Source: Escherichia coli (GTDB lineage Bacteria; Pseudomonadota; Gammaproteobacteria; Enterobacterales; Enterobacteriaceae). Taken from it: a DNA stretch of 64,000 nt. This document shows, piece after piece, positions 26,791 through 62,258 of this stretch. Location: the NCBI RefSeq assembly GCF_044324785.1, contig NZ_CP172127.1; one strand, 5' to 3'. The first letter of the stretch is position 1. Each line of letters starts with the position of its first letter. The notes under the pieces are model-generated. The model saw only the letters and a program-made list of their open reading frames with translations, was not told the DNA's origin and made no database searches. Both the position numbers and the translations under genes were made by a program.

Positions 26791-27039
26791 ATGTTATGGG
26801 TGCAGAAAAATACTGGGCATAATATTAGATGCAATACCAATACATTATCAACTAGCATAGTTATTGATTTTGATAATGATATCTATATTGCCAGGTTTAC
26901 AGTTTGGGATGATTTAAGTTGTATGTCAGAAGTTATATGCGTTGAAACGGGGGATTATAAATTAAATCAGCGAAATGAATTCCATACTTATGATTCGCTA
27001 AGGAAGATTTTTGATAATTTCATGGGAATTATACAATAA
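26791..27039 (+). CDS. Hypothetical protein, island ORF3 (about 82 aa)
   Basis: Track ORF starts at TTG 26773; first ATG at 26791; no clear SD, weakest of the five. Confidence 0.4.
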   Translation: MLWVQKNTGHNIRCNTNTLSTSIVIDFDNDIYIARFTVWDDLSCMSEVICVETGDYKLNQRNEFHTYDSLRKIFDNFMGIIQ

Positions 27040-27064
27040 ATTGCGCTAATAAAATAAAAACATT

Positions 27065-27556
27065 ATGTTTAAATTGATAGCAATCAAAGAAACTCCTTTG
27101 GGAGTAAAAGATGACGAAGATCTCTCGGTATCAGAAGCCATATACTCAACCTATACTGATTATACAAACGATATCCTTATGGTGTTTGATAAAGTCGTTT
27201 TATGTTTAGATAGAAAAGGAGATATTAGCGATATCTATAATGATATCGTCAATATATTTGAGCAGATAGAACTGGGTACTAAACAGTTTTTTATGTGTTT
27301 TTTATCCAGTACATTCACTACACGTTGGGAATTTGAGCATAAAAGCCCAGATACTATCAATATAACCGCTTATTGGTTTGACGTAAGATATCTTTATGGT
27401 ATCAACTCGATTATTAAAACTTCCACAATTGAAATCCCAGTATCTGAATTTAAAATGCAATGGGGAAATATTATAAAACCAATAAAAAAAGATATTCTTT
27501 CGTTAGGTTATGATGAAACGTTAGTAAATTTTTCTTTTTTTAACAATTTTAATTGA
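27065..27556 (+). CDS. Hypothetical protein, island ORF4 (163 aa)
   Basis: Same strand 25 nt after ORF3; acidic N-terminus; AT-rich codon usage. Confidence 0.55.
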   Translation: MFKLIAIKETPLGVKDDEDLSVSEAIYSTYTDYTNDILMVFDKVVLCLDRKGDISDIYNDIVNIFEQIELGTKQFFMCFLSSTFTTRWEFEHKSPDTINITAYWFDVRYLYGINSIIKTSTIEIPVSEFKMQWGNIIKPIKKDILSLGYDETLVNFSFFNNFN

Positions 27557-38955: not shown

Positions 38956-39329
38956 TTATCGGGCTTTTATTTAAGGGTAGTCATTCGCTCCGCCTGGTGG
39001 GCGACAAACCGTGCGGTGGATCACGTTTATTAACCTGTCAAAAAATATAACGCACTAATATCCATGGAATTTATAAAAATACAGATTTCGTGTTGTTTTT
39101 CATTTTCAGAACATTCAATCCTGCTCTCGCCGCAATCATGATATGCCATTCCTGATCTGGGTAATAGGCACAGGCTATCTTATTGATAGTTTATATTCAT
39201 GTAATTGATTGATTCCTATCAAAAAGCGTATTTCCCTGTTTTTTATGATGGCTTTGTCTCGCAGAGACGTTTGCAGCATTCTGGAAAATTTTCTGGGTCA
39301 CAATAACTCACCACCGTGAGGGAAGAATA

Positions 39330-57600: not shown

Positions 57601-58455
57601 TTATTGCGGCCAAAGCTGCTGGTGTAAAGACTCAACGACATCAGCAATACGCGGACCCATTCCCAGAATCAGGTTTTGATCAACGGTGATAATGCGCTGG
57701 TTTTTCCATGCGGCAGTGTGGGTAATTCCGGCAATAGAACGTAGCCGATTAATATCGCCATCGACCATTTGTGAGGTTACGACAATCACTTCTGGATTGG
57801 CCGCAATCAGTGATTCTGCACTGTAGCTTTTGTACTGCTGGTGGGTTGCGACGTTTTCTGCTCCGGCAAGCGAAAGAATGGCGTCCGCGACGCTGCCTTT
57901 ACCGGCAACCTGTGGCGCACTTCCGCCTGCGGAGAGAATAAACATGGCTTTAACCGGGGCTTTTTTGGCCGCCACGTTTTGCTGTACTCGCTCCAGGCGT
58001 TGGTTGATCTGTGTCACCAGCGCCTCGCCTTGTTCAGGAACCTGTAACGTTTTTGCCAGTTGGCGAATGTTGGCGTACATCTGCTGAAGGGTGGCAGGCA
58101 CACGTGGCAGGGTGACGACGTTGACTTTCTGCGCTCGTAATTGGTCGAGCACAATTTGTGGCCCGGCATCCTGCCAGGTAATTACGCTATCCGGGTGAAG
58201 TGACAAAATGCCTTCGCTGCTGAGTTGTTTCCAGTAGCCAATATGCGGCAGTTTGGCGGTTTCTGGTGGATAAGATGTCGTTTCATCGACACCAACCACG
58301 CGTTCGCCAGCGCCCATCGCGTAGATTAGCTCCGTCAGCGATCCTCCTGCGACCACGATACGTTCGGCAGCCGTTACGCTAAAAGCCCAGCTAAGAGCCA
58401 GTACTGCCGTAAACAATTTTTTTCGTTTTACCGCGGTCTTCGCGGCAGAGGCCAT
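57601..58455 (-). CDS. chuT: Periplasmic heme-binding protein ChuT
   Basis: Start set at MASAAKTAVKRKKLFTAVLALSWAFSVTA (signal-peptide-like) downstream of the Fur box; the track ORF extends to 58593 and an alternative start is at 58515. Confidence 0.75.
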   Translation of the reverse strand: MASAAKTAVKRKKLFTAVLALSWAFSVTAAERIVVAGGSLTELIYAMGAGERVVGVDETTSYPPETAKLPHIGYWKQLSSEGILSLHPDSVITWQDAGPQIVLDQLRAQKVNVVTLPRVPATLQQMYANIRQLAKTLQVPEQGEALVTQINQRLERVQQNVAAKKAPVKAMFILSAGGSAPQVAGKGSVADAILSLAGAENVATHQQYKSYSAESLIAANPEVIVVTSQMVDGDINRLRSIAGITHTAAWKNQRIITVDQNLILGMGPRIADVVESLHQQLWPQ

Positions 58456-58540
58456 GGCTGAAATACATAACGTTAGTGGGGAAAAAAGAAACGGCCTGGT
58501 GATGATCCTTGGCATAATATGAGAACTCTTATCAAATTGA

Positions 58541-58560
58541 GAATGATCATGATTATCATT
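58541..58560. promoter_or_regulatory. Fur box, chuT-side promoter
   Basis: gaatgatcatgattatcatt resembles the Fur consensus GATAATGATAATCATTATC. Confidence 0.6.
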
Positions 58561-58890
58561 TGAGTTATATATGAAATACAACCGTCGATTCAATACGCAA
58601 GGCGTTACAAGCGTATTTATTTTTGATTTTTATCAAGATGCTTCGTCAGCTAACGTTCTTGTTACCGACTAAATTTCAGCGCGGGAAAAAGCTGAGAACC
58701 CAGAGATATCGAGGCTTGCAGAGCAAAGCGAAGAGAAAATTATCACTGTTAACGACAAAGTTTAGTAATGAGGTCATGGGGGAATAACCATAAAAACAAA
58801 GTGGTTTCCAGGGCGCAGGATAAGTTTCATAACCCCCTGTTTATTGTGTTAATGGCGGTTAAAAAAAAGCTTGATCATAAAAAATTGATC

Positions 58891-58909
58891 GATAATAATT
58901 CTCATTATC
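58891..58909. promoter_or_regulatory. Fur box, chuA-side promoter
   Basis: gataataattctcattatc is a near-consensus Fur box about 290 bp upstream of chuA. Confidence 0.7.
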
Positions 58910-59170
58910 ACGTTTGCGTTTAACAAAATACGGCCATATGGATAACAAAGCCATATCATTTACAAGGGGTAACGCACAGCGCTCTTCACTCCTGATGGGG
59001 CATATCGTTTTGCCTGACAAAGAGGGCGTGCTTTTGCGTATTTGCCGAGATACCAGGCAATTTCATGGGATATAAACGCCTGTAAACTCACCCGGCGAAT
59101 ATTATCGCTCTGAATTTTAAATAAATTTATTTCTCGCCAGCCACCCCGGTATTAACCCAGGCAGCCAGCA

Positions 59171-59198
59171 TTTTTTATTTTCCTCATGGAGAATCGCT
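59171..59198 (+). promoter_or_regulatory. chuA 5' UTR U-rich element able to pair with the SD (candidate FourU thermometer)
   Basis: ttttttattttcctc directly upstream of catggag-ATG; the U-run and ucctc can pair with the ggag SD. Confidence 0.5.
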
Positions 59199-61181
59199 AT
59201 GTCACGTCCGCAATTTACCTCGTTGCGTTTGAGTTTGTTGGCTTTGGCTGTTTCTGCCACCTTGCCAACGTTTGCTTTTGCTACTGAAACCATGACCGTT
59301 ACGGCAACGGGGAATGCCCGTAGTTCCTTCGAAGCGCCTATGATGGTCAGCGTCATCGACACTTCCGCTCCTGAAAATCAAACGGCTACTTCAGCCACCG
59401 ATCTGCTGCGTCATGTTCCTGGAATTACTCTTGATGGTACCGGACGAACCAACGGTCAGGATGTAAATATGCGTGGCTATGATCATCGCGGCGTGCTGGT
59501 TCTTGTCGATGGTGTTCGCCAGGGAACGGATACCGGACACCTGAATGGTACTTTTCTTGATCCGGCGCTGATCAAGCGTGTTGAGATTGTTCGCGGACCT
59601 TCAGCATTACTGTATGGCAGTGGCGCGCTGGGTGGAGTGATCTCCTACGATACGGTCGATGCAAAAGATTTATTGCAGGAAGGACAAAGTAGTGGTTTTC
59701 GTGTCTTTGGTACTGGCGGCACGGGGGACCATAGCCTGGGATTAGGCGCGAGCGCGTTTGGGCGAACTGAAAATCTGGATGGTATTGTGGCCTGGTCCAG
59801 TCGCGATCGGGGTGATTTACGCCAGAGCAATGGTGAAACCGCGCCGAATGACGAGTCCATTAATAACATGCTGGCGAAAGGGACCTGGCAAATTGATTCA
59901 GCCCAGTCTCTGAGCGGTTTAGTGCGTTACTACAACAACGACGCGCGTGAACCAAAAAATCCGCAGACCGTTGAAGCTTCTGATAGCAGCAACCCGATGG
60001 TTGATCGTTCAACAATTCAACGCGATGCGCAGCTTTCTTATAAACTCGCCCCGCAGGGCAACGACTGGTTAAATGCAGATGCAAAAATTTACTGGTCGGA
60101 AGTCCGTATTAATGCGCAAAACACGGGGAGTTCCGGCGATTATCGTGAACAGATAACAAAAGGAGCCAAACTGGAGAACCGTTCCACTCTCTTTGCCGAC
60201 AGTTTCGCTTCTCACTTACTGACATATGGCGGTGAGTATTATCGTCAGGAACAACATCCGGGCGGCGCGACGACGGGCTTCCCGCAAGCAAAAATCGATT
60301 TTAGCTCCGGCTGGCTACAGGATGAGATCACCTTACGCGATCTGCCGATTACCCTGCTTGGCGGAACCCGCTATGACAGTTATCGCGGTAGCAGCGACGG
60401 CTACAAAGATGTTGATGCCGACAAATGGTCATCTCGCGCGGGGATGACTATCAACCCGGCTAACTGGCTGATGTTATTTGGCTCATATGCCCAGGCATTC
60501 CGCGCCCCGACGATGGGCGAAATGTATAACGATTCTAAGCACTTCTCGATTGGTCGCTTCTATACCAACTATTGGGTGCCAAACCCGAACTTACGTCCGG
60601 AAACTAACGAAACTCAGGAGTACGGTTTTGGGCTGCGTTTTGATGACCTGATGTTGTCCAATGATGCTCTGGAATTTAAAGCCAGCTACTTTGATACCAA
60701 AGCGAAGGATTACATCTCCACGACCGTCGATTTCGCGGCGGCGACGACTATGTCGTATAACGTCCCGAACGCCAAAATCTGGGGCTGGGATGTGATGACG
60801 AAATATACCACTGATCTGTTTAGCCTTGATGTGGCCTATAACCGTACCCGCGGCAAAGACACCGATACCGGCGAATACATCTCCAGCATTAACCCGGATA
60901 CCGTTACCAGCACCCTGAATATTCCGATCGCTCACAGTGGCTTCTCTGTTGGGTGGGTTGGTACGTTTGCCGATCGCTCAACACATATCAGCAGCAGTTA
61001 CAGCAAACAACCAGGCTATGGCGTGAATGATTTCTACGTCAGTTATCAAGGACAACAGGCGCTCAAAGGTATGACCACTACTTTGGTGTTGGGTAACGCT
61101 TTCGACAAAGAGTACTGGTCGCCGCAAGGCATCCCACAGGATGGTCGTAACGGAAAAATTTTCGTGAGTTATCAATGGTAA
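59199..61181 (+). CDS. chuA: TonB-dependent outer membrane heme/hemoglobin receptor ChuA
   Basis: 660 aa, signal peptide, TonB-box region, C-terminal aromatic residue (..FVSYQW). Confidence 0.9.
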   Translation: MSRPQFTSLRLSLLALAVSATLPTFAFATETMTVTATGNARSSFEAPMMVSVIDTSAPENQTATSATDLLRHVPGITLDGTGRTNGQDVNMRGYDHRGVLVLVDGVRQGTDTGHLNGTFLDPALIKRVEIVRGPSALLYGSGALGGVISYDTVDAKDLLQEGQSSGFRVFGTGGTGDHSLGLGASAFGRTENLDGIVAWSSRDRGDLRQSNGETAPNDESINNMLAKGTWQIDSAQSLSGLVRYYNNDAREPKNPQTVEASDSSNPMVDRSTIQRDAQLSYKLAPQGNDWLNADAKIYWSEVRINAQNTGSSGDYREQITKGAKLENRSTLFADSFASHLLTYGGEYYRQEQHPGGATTGFPQAKIDFSSGWLQDEITLRDLPITLLGGTRYDSYRGSSDGYKDVDADKWSSRAGMTINPANWLMLFGSYAQAFRAPTMGEMYNDSKHFSIGRFYTNYWVPNPNLRPETNETQEYGFGLRFDDLMLSNDALEFKASYFDTKAKDYISTTVDFAAATTMSYNVPNAKIWGWDVMTKYTTDLFSLDVAYNRTRGKDTDTGEYISSINPDTVTSTLNIPIAHSGFSVGWVGTFADRSTHISSSYSKQPGYGVNDFYVSYQGQQALKGMTTTLVLGNAFDKEYWSPQGIPQDGRNGKIFVSYQW

Positions 61182-61229: not shown

Positions 61230-62258
61230 ATGAACCACTACACACGCTGGCTTGAGTTAAAAGAACAAAATCCCGGAAAGTACGCGCGTGACATCGCAGG
61301 TTTAATGAATATCAGCGAAGCAGAACTGGCATTTGCACGCGTCACGCACGATGCGTGGCGGATGCGCGGCGATATCCGTGAAATTCTGGCGGCGCTCGAA
61401 AGTGTTGGCGAAACCAAATGTATTTGCCGTAATGAATATGCAGTCCATGAGCAAGTTGGTACGTTCACAAACCAGCATTTGAACGGACATGCCGGATTGA
61501 TCCTCAATCCGCGCGCGCTGGATTTACGTCTGTTTCTCAATCAATGGGCCAGTGTTTTCCACATCAAAGAAAACACGGCTCGTGGCGAACGCCAGAGTAT
61601 TCAGTTCTTTGATCATCAGGGCGACGCATTACTAAAAGTTTATGCCACCGACAATACCGATATGGCGGCATGGAGTGAGCTTCTGGCACAGTTTATCGCC
61701 GATGAGAATACGTCGCTTGAGTTAAAAGCCGTGGATGCGCCAGTCGTTCAAATGCGAGCCGATGCCAGTGTGGTCGAGCAAGAGTGGCGGGCGATGACCG
61801 ACGTTCATCAGTTTTTTACGTTGCTCAAGCGCCACAACCTGACGCGCCAACAGGCGTTCAATCTGGTGGCAGACGATTTGGCCTGCAAAGTATCCAACAG
61901 TGCGTTGGCGCAAATTCTTGAATCTGCACAGCAGGATGGCAATGAAATCATGGTGTTTGTTGGCAACCGTGGCTGCGTACAGATTTTCACTGGCGTGGTA
62001 GAAAAAGTGGTGCCAATGAAAGGTTGGCTGAATATTTTCAACCCGACGTTTACTCTTCATCTATTAGAAGAGAGCATTGCTGAAACCTGGGTAACCCGTA
62101 AACCTGCTAGTGACGGTTATGTGACCAGTCTGGAATTGTTTGCCCATGATGGTACACAGATAGTGCAACTTTATGGTCAACGTACAGAAGGCGAACAGGA
62201 GCAAGCGCAATGGCGTAAGCAAATTGCTTCGCTGATACCGGAAGGCGTTACTGCATAA
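61230..62258 (+). CDS. chuS: Heme oxygenase/heme-degrading protein ChuS
   Basis: 342 aa immediately after chuA. Confidence 0.88.
   Translation: MNHYTRWLELKEQNPGKYARDIAGLMNISEAELAFARVTHDAWRMRGDIREILAALESVGETKCICRNEYAVHEQVGTFTNQHLNGHAGLILNPRALDLRLFLNQWASVFHIKENTARGERQSIQFFDHQGDALLKVYATDNTDMAAWSELLAQFIADENTSLELKAVDAPVVQMRADASVVEQEWRAMTDVHQFFTLLKRHNLTRQQAFNLVADDLACKVSNSALAQILESAQQDGNEIMVFVGNRGCVQIFTGVVEKVVPMKGWLNIFNPTFTLHLLEESIAETWVTRKPASDGYVTSLELFAHDGTQIVQLYGQRTEGEQEQAQWRKQIASLIPEGVTA

Follow-up and report, generated by a model that had tools for sequence, protein, structure and literature searches.

In the window, i.e. the whole stretch of 64,000 nt of Escherichia coli DNA that was analysed, positions 58456-59198 correspond to the divergent intergenic region between chuT (shuT) and chuA, according to the RefSeq annotation of a locus that is 99.5% identical. 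This confirms the locus assignment of a preliminary description, which had been made from the sequence alone. chuA codes for a TonB-dependent haem receptor and is followed by chuS, and in the RefSeq context the genes are part of the chu island, with yhiD/hdeB and dctR/slp as flanks. The coordinates of all features are collected in Table 1.

Of the 5426 complete E. coli genomes in the collection, 2236 carry the 743-nt stretch on their chromosome, with a top identity of 99.5%; every genome of the collection (n = 5426) differs here by at least 0.5% from the window strain. The intergenic alleles form two groups, one being about 97-99% identical to the window (including O157) and the other being of the UTI89 type (80-90%). 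When positions 58300-59300 are compared, the window allele shows about 97% identity with EHEC and 91.6% with UTI89. The most divergent segment between the UTI89-type and the window-type alleles is the middle of the chuA leader (58919-59119).

A phylogenetic footprint across five Escherichia lineages revealed conservation peaks at the chuT Fur box and UTR, where a fraction of 0.97 of the columns is invariant. The corresponding values are 0.8 for an FNR box upstream of chuT, 0.83-0.9 for the chuA promoter and Fur box, and 0.83-1.0 for the module composed of the CyaR site, the FourU element and the Shine-Dalgarno (SD) sequence. Three small open reading frames (58623-58787, 58768-58923 and a leader ORF with its ATG, 58938-59075) were rejected as genes, since stop codons or frameshifts interrupt them elsewhere in Escherichia.

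Table 1. Features in and around the chuT/chuA intergenic region (positions in the 64,000-nt window)
Feature	Position	Strand	Basis and remarks
chuT, longest ORF	57601-58593	-	ORF list; starts with TTG 58593
First 27 codons of the 304-aa ChuT, MPRIITRPFLFSPLTLCISA[M/V]ASAAKT	58435-58515	-	BLASTP, DNA alignment
In-frame ATG	58453-58455	-	window-specific variant of a GTG (Val) codon
chuT 5' UTR, 42 nt	58516-58557	-	published shuT leader length; 97% of columns invariant in five Escherichia lineages
chuT Fur box GATAATCATGATCATTCTC	58539-58557	-	3 mismatches; +1 to +19 of the transcript, TSS 58557
chuT sigma-70 promoter	58564-58593	-	-35 TTGAAT 58593-58588, 18-bp spacer, -10 TATAAC 58569-58564; read from the sequence
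Exact FNR consensus TTGATTTTTATCAA	58623-58636	strand-neutral	centre at -72.5 relative to the chuT TSS; candidate class I site
chuA sigma-70-like promoter	58871-58899	+	-35 TTGATC 58871-58876, 17-bp spacer, -10 AATAAT 58894-58899; consensus scan
chuA Fur box GATAATAATTCTCATTATC	58891-58909	+	2-3 mismatches; overlaps the -10 hexamer and the transcription start
chuA leader, 291 nt	58908-59198	+	start at about 58908 from EHEC dRNA-seq (PMC9002310)
Predicted CyaR pairing site CCCAGGCAGCCAGCAUUUUU	59156-59175	+	best local duplex
Distal anti-SD arm AGCAUUUUUU	59167-59176	+	3' part of the predicted CyaR site plus the next base
FourU hairpin AUUUUCC/UCAU/GGAGAAU	59177-59183 with 59188-59194	+	folding, Rfam RF02597
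chuA CDS, 660-aa TonB-dependent haem receptor	59199-61181	+	ORF list, RefSeq annotation
chuS	61230-62258	+	in the window

Fur boxes and promoters

To locate Fur boxes, the window was scanned with the 19-mer consensus GATAATGATAATCATTATC, allowing up to three mismatches and using shuffled sequences as background. The chuT and chuA boxes are the only matches in the 64 kb, where the shuffles lead one to expect 0.03. Both boxes named in the preliminary description are present, and they sit where Fur control has been published, but the first one, which had been placed at 58541-58560, is 2-3 nt off the best 19-mer. A match with four mismatches, shifted by 6 nt (58545-58563), is overlapped by that earlier call.

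Transcription that depends on iron and Fur has been reported for shuA/chuA and for shuT (PMC3660397, PMC5458455, PMC9002310). The published Fur site of shuT comprises 19 nt with three mismatches and spans +1 to +19 (Wei 2017, PMC5458455). The shuT promoter begins at -36, and the 62-nt promoter insert of that study starts 26 nt upstream of the promoter (PMC5458455). A promoter scan had returned another match for chuT (58543-58514), which was dropped because it falls within the mapped UTR; the TTGAAT/TATAAC pair fits the published start instead. The chuA promoter agrees with the published start and with the UTR of 291-293 nt. In both cases the position of the operator fits a block of RNA polymerase, as the chuA box extends over the -10 hexamer and the transcription start (about 58908), and the chuT box over +1 to +19.

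The chuA leader and its SD helices

The start of chuA mapped by dRNA-seq in EHEC gives a 5' UTR of 291 nt (Sy and Tree 2022, PMC9002310). Transferred to the window, this start falls at about 58908, within the Fur box. The leader of about 290 nt that had been proposed earlier is in agreement with these data, since 290 nt separate the Fur box from the ATG at 59199, and the leader has the same length in the window and in O157. It had also been suggested that a U-run could sequester the SD sequence in the manner of the FourU thermometer of shuA/chuA. Folding did yield an SD-hiding helix, and it is the shuA/chuA FourU element itself. The sequence at 59170-59201 is AUUUUUUAUUUUCCUCAUGGAGAAUCGCUAUG, and here the SD sequence GGAGA (59188-59192) is buried in a 7-bp hairpin with the loop UCAU, in which the uridines 59178-59181 pair with A59193, A59192, G59191 and A59190. 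The Rfam model RF02597 (shuA_thermo) matches the same 32 nt on the plus strand with 60.1 bits (gathering score 58, E = 1.2e-8); model positions 1-32 of 32 are covered, and 32/32 are identical to the consensus. The hairpin is invariant in all Escherichia sequences compared, and E. albertii and two more Escherichia lineages reach the RF02597 threshold as well. The hemR leaders outside Escherichia do not reach the gathering score, and other Rfam families (HH9, STnc280, mir-743) gave only sub-threshold chance matches in the region.

According to ViennaRNA, the hairpin has a folding energy of -6.1 kcal/mol at 37 °C and -8.4 kcal/mol at 25 °C, with a z-score of -2.83 (5 of 200 shuffles fold as well). 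It is unchanged in the 91-nt context, in the full leader and in the centroid structure, and the probability that GGAG is unpaired does not exceed 0.02, whether 32 nt, 91 nt or the full leader are folded. Taken as a whole, the leader does not fold more stably than shuffled sequences (z = -0.05). A terminator scan of the leader gave three weak matches, not above shuffles, in agreement with the published statement that the leader has no intrinsic terminator (PMC9002310).

Folding at 25 versus 37 °C had been proposed as a check. The SD-hiding helix is present, but no switch is seen between the two temperatures, the SD sequence being paired at both. In fact, it stays paired from 20 to 45 °C, and for the isolated hairpin one extrapolates to melting near 68 °C. 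For the temperature response we rely on published reporter assays. The 32-nt element alone gives control of gfp between 25 and 37 °C at unchanged mRNA level (Kouse 2013, PMC3660397). In both shuA and the chuA of UTI89, U-19C stabilises the hairpin, C-17A and U-19A destabilise it, and single stabilising or destabilising mutations moved the reporter response in the predicted directions (PMC3660397). In the window these positions map inside the stem (U-19 is 59180, C-17 is 59182). We calculated -8.7 kcal/mol for U-19C and -2.5 and -1.7 kcal/mol for the two destabilising mutants, i.e. a stabilisation by 2.6 and a destabilisation by 3.6-4.4 kcal/mol, which matches the published directions.

Several further inputs to the leader are known from EHEC work (PMC9002310): Hfq peaks at the ribosome-binding site and at +160 to +200 (59067-59107 in the window), an inhibitory, putative rut region at +177 to +217 (59084-59124), Rho termination at +271 (59178), activation by CyaR, and repression by RyhB and Esr41 at the ribosome-binding site. 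One could therefore regard the hairpin as a constitutive translational damper or as a platform for sRNAs and Rho, with the effect of 25 versus 37 °C being secondary: the Rho termination point falls within the hairpin's 5' arm, the ribosome-binding site in question is also where Hfq, RyhB and Esr41 act, and nearest-neighbour folding keeps the SD sequence closed at all physiological temperatures. We consider this very improbable, because the isolated 32-nt element conferred temperature control and its mutants behaved as predicted, and because the U273A exchange led to a 2.6-fold de-repression at 25 °C (PMC9002310). A thermometer is the reading that we retain for the hairpin.

A CyaR site has been placed about 15 nt upstream of the SD sequence (PMC9002310). 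In a windowed search, the best local duplex was found at 59156-59175 with nt 19-40 of the MG1655 CyaR (-18.1 kcal/mol); this search replaced an unrestricted RNAduplex run of CyaR against the leader, which had returned meaningless long-range solutions. Over 63 leaders the mean predicted CyaR energy is -15.0, compared with -9.2 ± 2.8 for shuffles. The CyaR core box is invariant in the 63 leaders, and the conserved box coincides with the best predicted duplex. The 3' part of the predicted site is at the same time a distal arm that can pair with the SD sequence. When U273A was introduced in silico, the fold switched to the helix with the distal arm and the SD sequence stayed hidden; with the CyaR site masked in addition, the SD sequence opened. 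In the published experiments, CyaR still activates the U273A mutant, and more strongly, for which an 'additional repressive element' was postulated (Sy and Tree, PMC9002310). The refolding of U273A and the effect of masking make the distal arm a hypothetical candidate for this element, and the arm may be what CyaR overcomes. This would be a concrete mechanism for the activation of chuA by CyaR, which the 2022 study left open (PMC9002310). A distal anti-SD arm overlapping the predicted CyaR site was not found in the searchable literature.

Beyond Escherichia, the genes of ChuA homologues (57-88% identical) come first in hemR-hemS-hemT-hemU-hemV operons and have no divergent chuT. In most of these hemR/chuA loci, 291-333 nt separate the ATG from an upstream Fur box, and in a few the distance is larger, reaching about 515 nt. 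The hemR leaders share a nearly invariant box, CGCCAGCCACCCAGG..CCCAGGCAGCCAGC, and have two pyrimidine-rich stretches that can pair with GGAGAG. Standard pairs fill 88.6% of the cells for the distal arm and 86.4% for the proximal arm; when the 3' partner is slid by 1-3 columns as a control, the values drop to 40-57% and 37-72%. True covariation is almost absent in the SD helices, since the SD side is invariant, and what the comparison across leaders suggests is conserved pairing potential only. An RNAalifold analysis of 63 leaders gave just a 4-bp GGCA:UGCC pairing with no compensatory changes and was not used.

The chuT start codon, a receptor relic and an FNR box

The longest chuT reading frame begins with TTG 58593. 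The preliminary description had argued that the true start is downstream, which is right: this TTG forms the first three bases of the -35 hexamer TTGAAT. It is unusable as a start, as it lies 36 nt upstream of the mapped transcription start (58557) and the ORF spans the Fur box. The left edge that had been given for the control region (58456) implies a start at ATG 58455. This did not hold, for the accepted start, ATG 58515-58513, lies inside the claimed control region. PGAP uses this ATG in 7/7 genomes; it fits the published 42-nt UTR, is invariant in all lineages compared, and is preceded by AAGAG at the right spacing.

5'-RACE on shuT of S. dysenteriae gave a leader of 42 nt between the transcription start and the start codon (PMC5458455). 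The same study describes an SD-hiding hairpin that is destabilised by U15A/U16C (PMC5458455). In the chuT leader of the window, A14UUCU18 (58544-58540) pairs with A29GAGU33 (58529-58525) and hides the SD sequence AAGAG. The minimum free energy structure is.(((((.((((..(((((..........)))))..))))))))). with -5.8 kcal/mol, which is not more stable than shuffles (z = 0.14), and U15 and U16 fall in its stem. Judged by these positions, the predicted hairpin corresponds to the published shuT RNA thermometer.

A BLASTP comparison revealed that residues 1-27 of E. coli ChuT match residues 2-28 of a Citrobacter receptor (16/27 identical, E = 1e-8). On the DNA level, the alignment has 60-75% identity and comprises the promoter, the Fur box, the leader and the first 25 codons. 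The chuW homologues of Citrobacter, Klebsiella, Yokenella, Paramixta and Limnobaculum are located in single receptor-led operons, in the order TonB receptor, ChuT-like protein (274-281 aa), ChuW, ChuX and ChuY; four of these five operons continue with ChuU and ChuV. Nine extra bases with an ATG, from which a classical signal peptide, MKKLFTAVLALSWAFS.., would start, are present in E. albertii and in two divergent lineages of Escherichia; in E. coli proper, the nine bases with the MKKLF ATG are lost. In view of the homology in protein and DNA, the promoter, leader, start codon and first 27 codons of chuT are probably the remnant of a receptor gene, the body of which was deleted, fused in frame to chuT. 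This origin would account for the Fur site downstream of the chuT transcription start and, with the remnant fused ahead, for the 48-residue tandem signal peptide of ChuT/ShuT; mature ShuT begins at residue 49 (PDB 2R7A). We did not find a receptor origin of the chuT 5' end in the searchable literature. It bears on the question of which chuT start codon databases should use.

Several observations would also suit a start of the window strain's ChuT at ATG 58455, giving a 284-aa precursor with a normal 28-aa signal peptide. The N-terminus read from this codon, MASAAKTAVKRKKLFTAVLALSWAFSVTA followed by AERIVV, resembles a classical Sec signal peptide, the solved ShuT chain starts only at residue 49 of the 304-aa form, and the ChuT-like proteins of other genera, with their 274-281 aa, begin with MKKL.. 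or MIKK... Moreover, the 31 codons from ATG 58515 to KKLF lack codon periodicity, with 10/14/11 variable columns at codon positions 1/2/3 and a pN/pS of 0.43-1.8. We nevertheless regard this start as unlikely. None of the nine other Escherichia sequences in the comparison has the ATG at 58455, the codon being GTG in all of them; in an alignment of six other E. coli genomes it is GTG throughout, a further sequence has Val, and the three divergent Escherichia lineages lack the ATG too. Inspection of the sequence upstream of this codon showed no SD sequence. ATG 58515, on the other hand, is invariant, has its SD sequence and is the start used in the shuT reporter work (PMC5458455) as well as by PGAP, and residues 1-27 counted from it keep a complete receptor-type signal peptide. 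We thus continue with ATG 58515 as the chuT start.

Upstream of the chuT promoter lies an exact FNR consensus. Exact TTGAT-N4-ATCAA matches occur three times in the 64 kb, where 0.15 are expected; one of them lies between treF and ccp (yhjA), about 115 bp ahead of the ccp start codon; ccp is FNR-regulated, and its promoter served as a positive control. Class I FNR sites are centred near -61.5, -71.5 or -82.5, and the chuT box is 1 bp off the canonical -71.5 when counted from a transcription start that was mapped in S. dysenteriae. The box is invariant in 10/10 Escherichia loci, including E. albertii with its diverged left flank. Five receptor-chuT-chuW-chuX-chuY operons of other genera have sites with 0-1 mismatch at 69.5-73.5 bp upstream of the Fur box, compared with three such sites in 43.8 kb of hemR upstream sequence (73 loci) taken as a control. 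We infer that the box is a candidate activation site of the chuT promoter.

Alternatively, the FNR consensus could be a palindrome that arose by chance, or a different factor could bind there, and 58623-58636 would not mediate oxygen regulation of chuTWXY. The offset of 1 bp from the class I position would be in line with this, as would the Pectobacterium and Erwinia operons with only chuW, chuX and chuY, in which no good FNR site was found. Targeted, non-exhaustive literature searches returned no experimental FNR link to chuT or chuTWXY, and the shuT and chuA papers are silent on it. Set against these points are the rarity of the exact consensus, its conservation despite the diverged E. albertii flank, the sites at similar distances in other genera together with their scarcity in the hemR control, and the fact that chuTWXY encodes enzymes for oxygen-independent haem degradation. 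The alternative has a real chance of being correct, yet we lean towards a functional site. If so, chuTWXY, the operon for anaerobic haem degradation, would be activated by FNR in addition to being controlled by Fur and temperature, and oxygen would be a direct input to it, which fits the anaerobic haem-degrading enzymes. Repression of chuS, the gene of the aerobic oxygenase, by FnrS is known, and activation of chuTWXY by FNR would complement it.

A regulatory model and its relation to known systems

Taken together, it is close to certain that 58456-59198 is a divergent chu/shu regulatory region with two Fur-shut promoters, a FourU-hidden chuA SD sequence and an SD-hiding chuT leader. The features themselves, their rarity, the Rfam identity and the conservation come from the present analysis. 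For the Fur and temperature dependence, the transcription starts and the sRNA and Rho inputs we draw on published experiments with identical or near-identical sequences. The following sequence of events may be envisaged. The two back-to-back sigma-70 promoters would each be shut by Fe-Fur. In the chuA transcript, the last 22 nt of the 291-nt leader would form the FourU hairpin; as it buries the SD sequence, chuA would be translated weakly at 25 °C and more strongly at 37 °C. The leader would also be acted on by CyaR (activating), by RyhB and Esr41 (repressing) and by Rho (+271). On the opposite strand, the 42-nt chuT leader would fold its own SD-hiding hairpin, with translation from ATG 58515.

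Beyond this, we propose tentatively, and with clearly less confidence, that the chuT half is a fossil TonB-receptor promoter, leader, start and signal peptide with an FNR site, and that on the chuA side an ancestral distal anti-SD arm overlaps the CyaR site. As part of the same tentative reading, the ancestral operon would have comprised the receptor, chuT, chuW, chuX, chuY, chuU and chuV, and Escherichia would have lost the receptor body by deletion. The Fur boxes, the long leader, the FourU thermometer, the sRNA and Rho inputs, and the shuT Fur site and thermometer are already published. Possible new leads of moderate interest are the conserved FNR box, the receptor-gene relic and the distal anti-SD arm. 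The combination of Fur and FourU at chuA/shuA is a textbook case of a pathogen pairing low iron and body temperature to detect its host.

When comparing the chuT side with shuT (Wei, Kouse and Murphy 2017, PMC5458455), the 42-nt distance, the Fur site, the promoter at -36 and U15/U16 all fit, as judged by the positions described for S. dysenteriae. The shuT paper mentions neither the FNR box nor a receptor-derived leader and first codons (PMC5458455). With class I FNR promoters such as yhjA/ccp, the region shares the exact TTGAT-N4-ATCAA and an operon of anaerobic function, and the centre of the candidate site would be about 72 bp upstream of a sigma-70 start. What sets the putative chuT site apart from these promoters is a Fur operator that follows the transcription start.

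The chuA side has the same 32 nt as the shuA/chuA FourU element (RF02597, PMC3660397), with the same 7-bp hairpin and four uridines on the AGAA of the SD sequence. The position, -29 to +3 at the end of a leader of 291-293 nt, is also the same, whereas the upstream leader sequence differs. The hemR/hmuR leaders of other Enterobacterales share the Fur spacing (typically about 300-330 nt), the conserved box and the anti-SD arms. In most genera, however, the SD sequence would be sequestered by the distal arm GCGCUUUUC, while in chuA the proximal AUUUUCC takes this role. The founding member of the FourU family is Salmonella agsA, a heat-shock gene with a short leader. The principle is shared, i.e. 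a short hairpin in which consecutive uridines pair with the SD sequence through A-U and G-U pairs. Sequence and gene context, however, are unrelated, the chuA hairpin is predicted to be more stable, and unlike that of agsA it closes a long leader on which several regulators act.

Origin and start of chuT

The 5′ end of Escherichia chuT appears to derive from another gene. Codons 1-27 of annotated ChuT (58435-58515, minus strand) share homology, along with the promoter and leader, with the beginning of a TonB-receptor gene, which in Citrobacter, Klebsiella, Yokenella, Paramixta and Limnobaculum is the first gene of a chuT-chuW-chuX-chuY operon. From this homology, the body of the receptor gene is most probably deleted in Escherichia. 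A 9-nt segment with an ATG (MKKLF..) is kept in E. albertii and in two further, divergent lineages of Escherichia (L042, L052 and L063), and has been lost in E. coli proper; this ATG is probably the ancestral ChuT start. Among the Escherichia sequences compared, the codon at 58455 has changed from GTG to ATG in the window alone.

Features at the chuT 5′ end and FNR-consensus matches
Feature	Coordinates	Location or remark
TonB-receptor gene start homologous to chuT 5′ end	L089:1011-1095	also in L092, L093, L095, L091 (receptor-led operons)
9-nt ATG segment	window 58413-58421 region	columns 220-228 of A3 (Escherichia chuT-side alignment)
Perfect FNR consensus TTGATTTTTATCAA	58623-58636	centre -72.5 relative to chuT promoter; sequence match
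Exact FNR consensus	39209-39222	treF/ccp(yhjA) intergenic region, ~115 bp upstream of ccp
FNR-consensus match	27074-27087	within stretch 26800-27400
Exact FNR consensus, Pseudocitrobacter	L010:2169-2182; L069:2168-2181	overlapping hemR promoter -35 region

Conserved and variable parts of the chuA leader

An alignment of 63 hemR/chuA leaders (A2) revealed a near-invariant box, CCCAGGCAGCCAGC, with a U-rich arm directly after it (59156-59176); this arrangement is shared by many Enterobacterales genera. The box falls on the predicted CyaR pairing site; box and arm could, as modelled, act as a second anti-SD arm. When UTI89-type and window/EHEC-type alleles are compared, the divergence of the whole region is highest in the mid chuA leader (58919-59119), which also carries a 1-nt indel, and the last 85 nt of the leader as well as the chuT side are nearly invariant. 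In Escherichia sp. MOD1-EC7003, whose chuA is 98% identical, chuT is absent within 2.5 kb upstream of chuA. Since the distance between its Fur box and the chuA ATG is 438 nt instead of 308, an insertion or rearrangement of the control region is suggested.

FNR-consensus sites

The FNR-consensus box at the chuT promoter, of which we found no mention in the searchable literature, does not vary across the Escherichia loci compared. In the five other genera, the receptor-chuT-chuW-chuX-chuY operons have FNR-consensus sites with 0-1 mismatch, spaced from the Fur box as in the window. An exact FNR consensus at the hemR promoter -35 region occurs only in Pseudocitrobacter; its E. coli counterpart, TTGATCATAAAAAA, is a half-site.

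The stretch 26800-27400 is part of a rare accessory segment with a hypothetical protein and a TriTu-family immunity protein. As it is present in only two of 5426 complete E. coli genomes, the strain background of the window is unusual.

FNR and OxyR are known regulators of the ccp promoter, which served as positive control.
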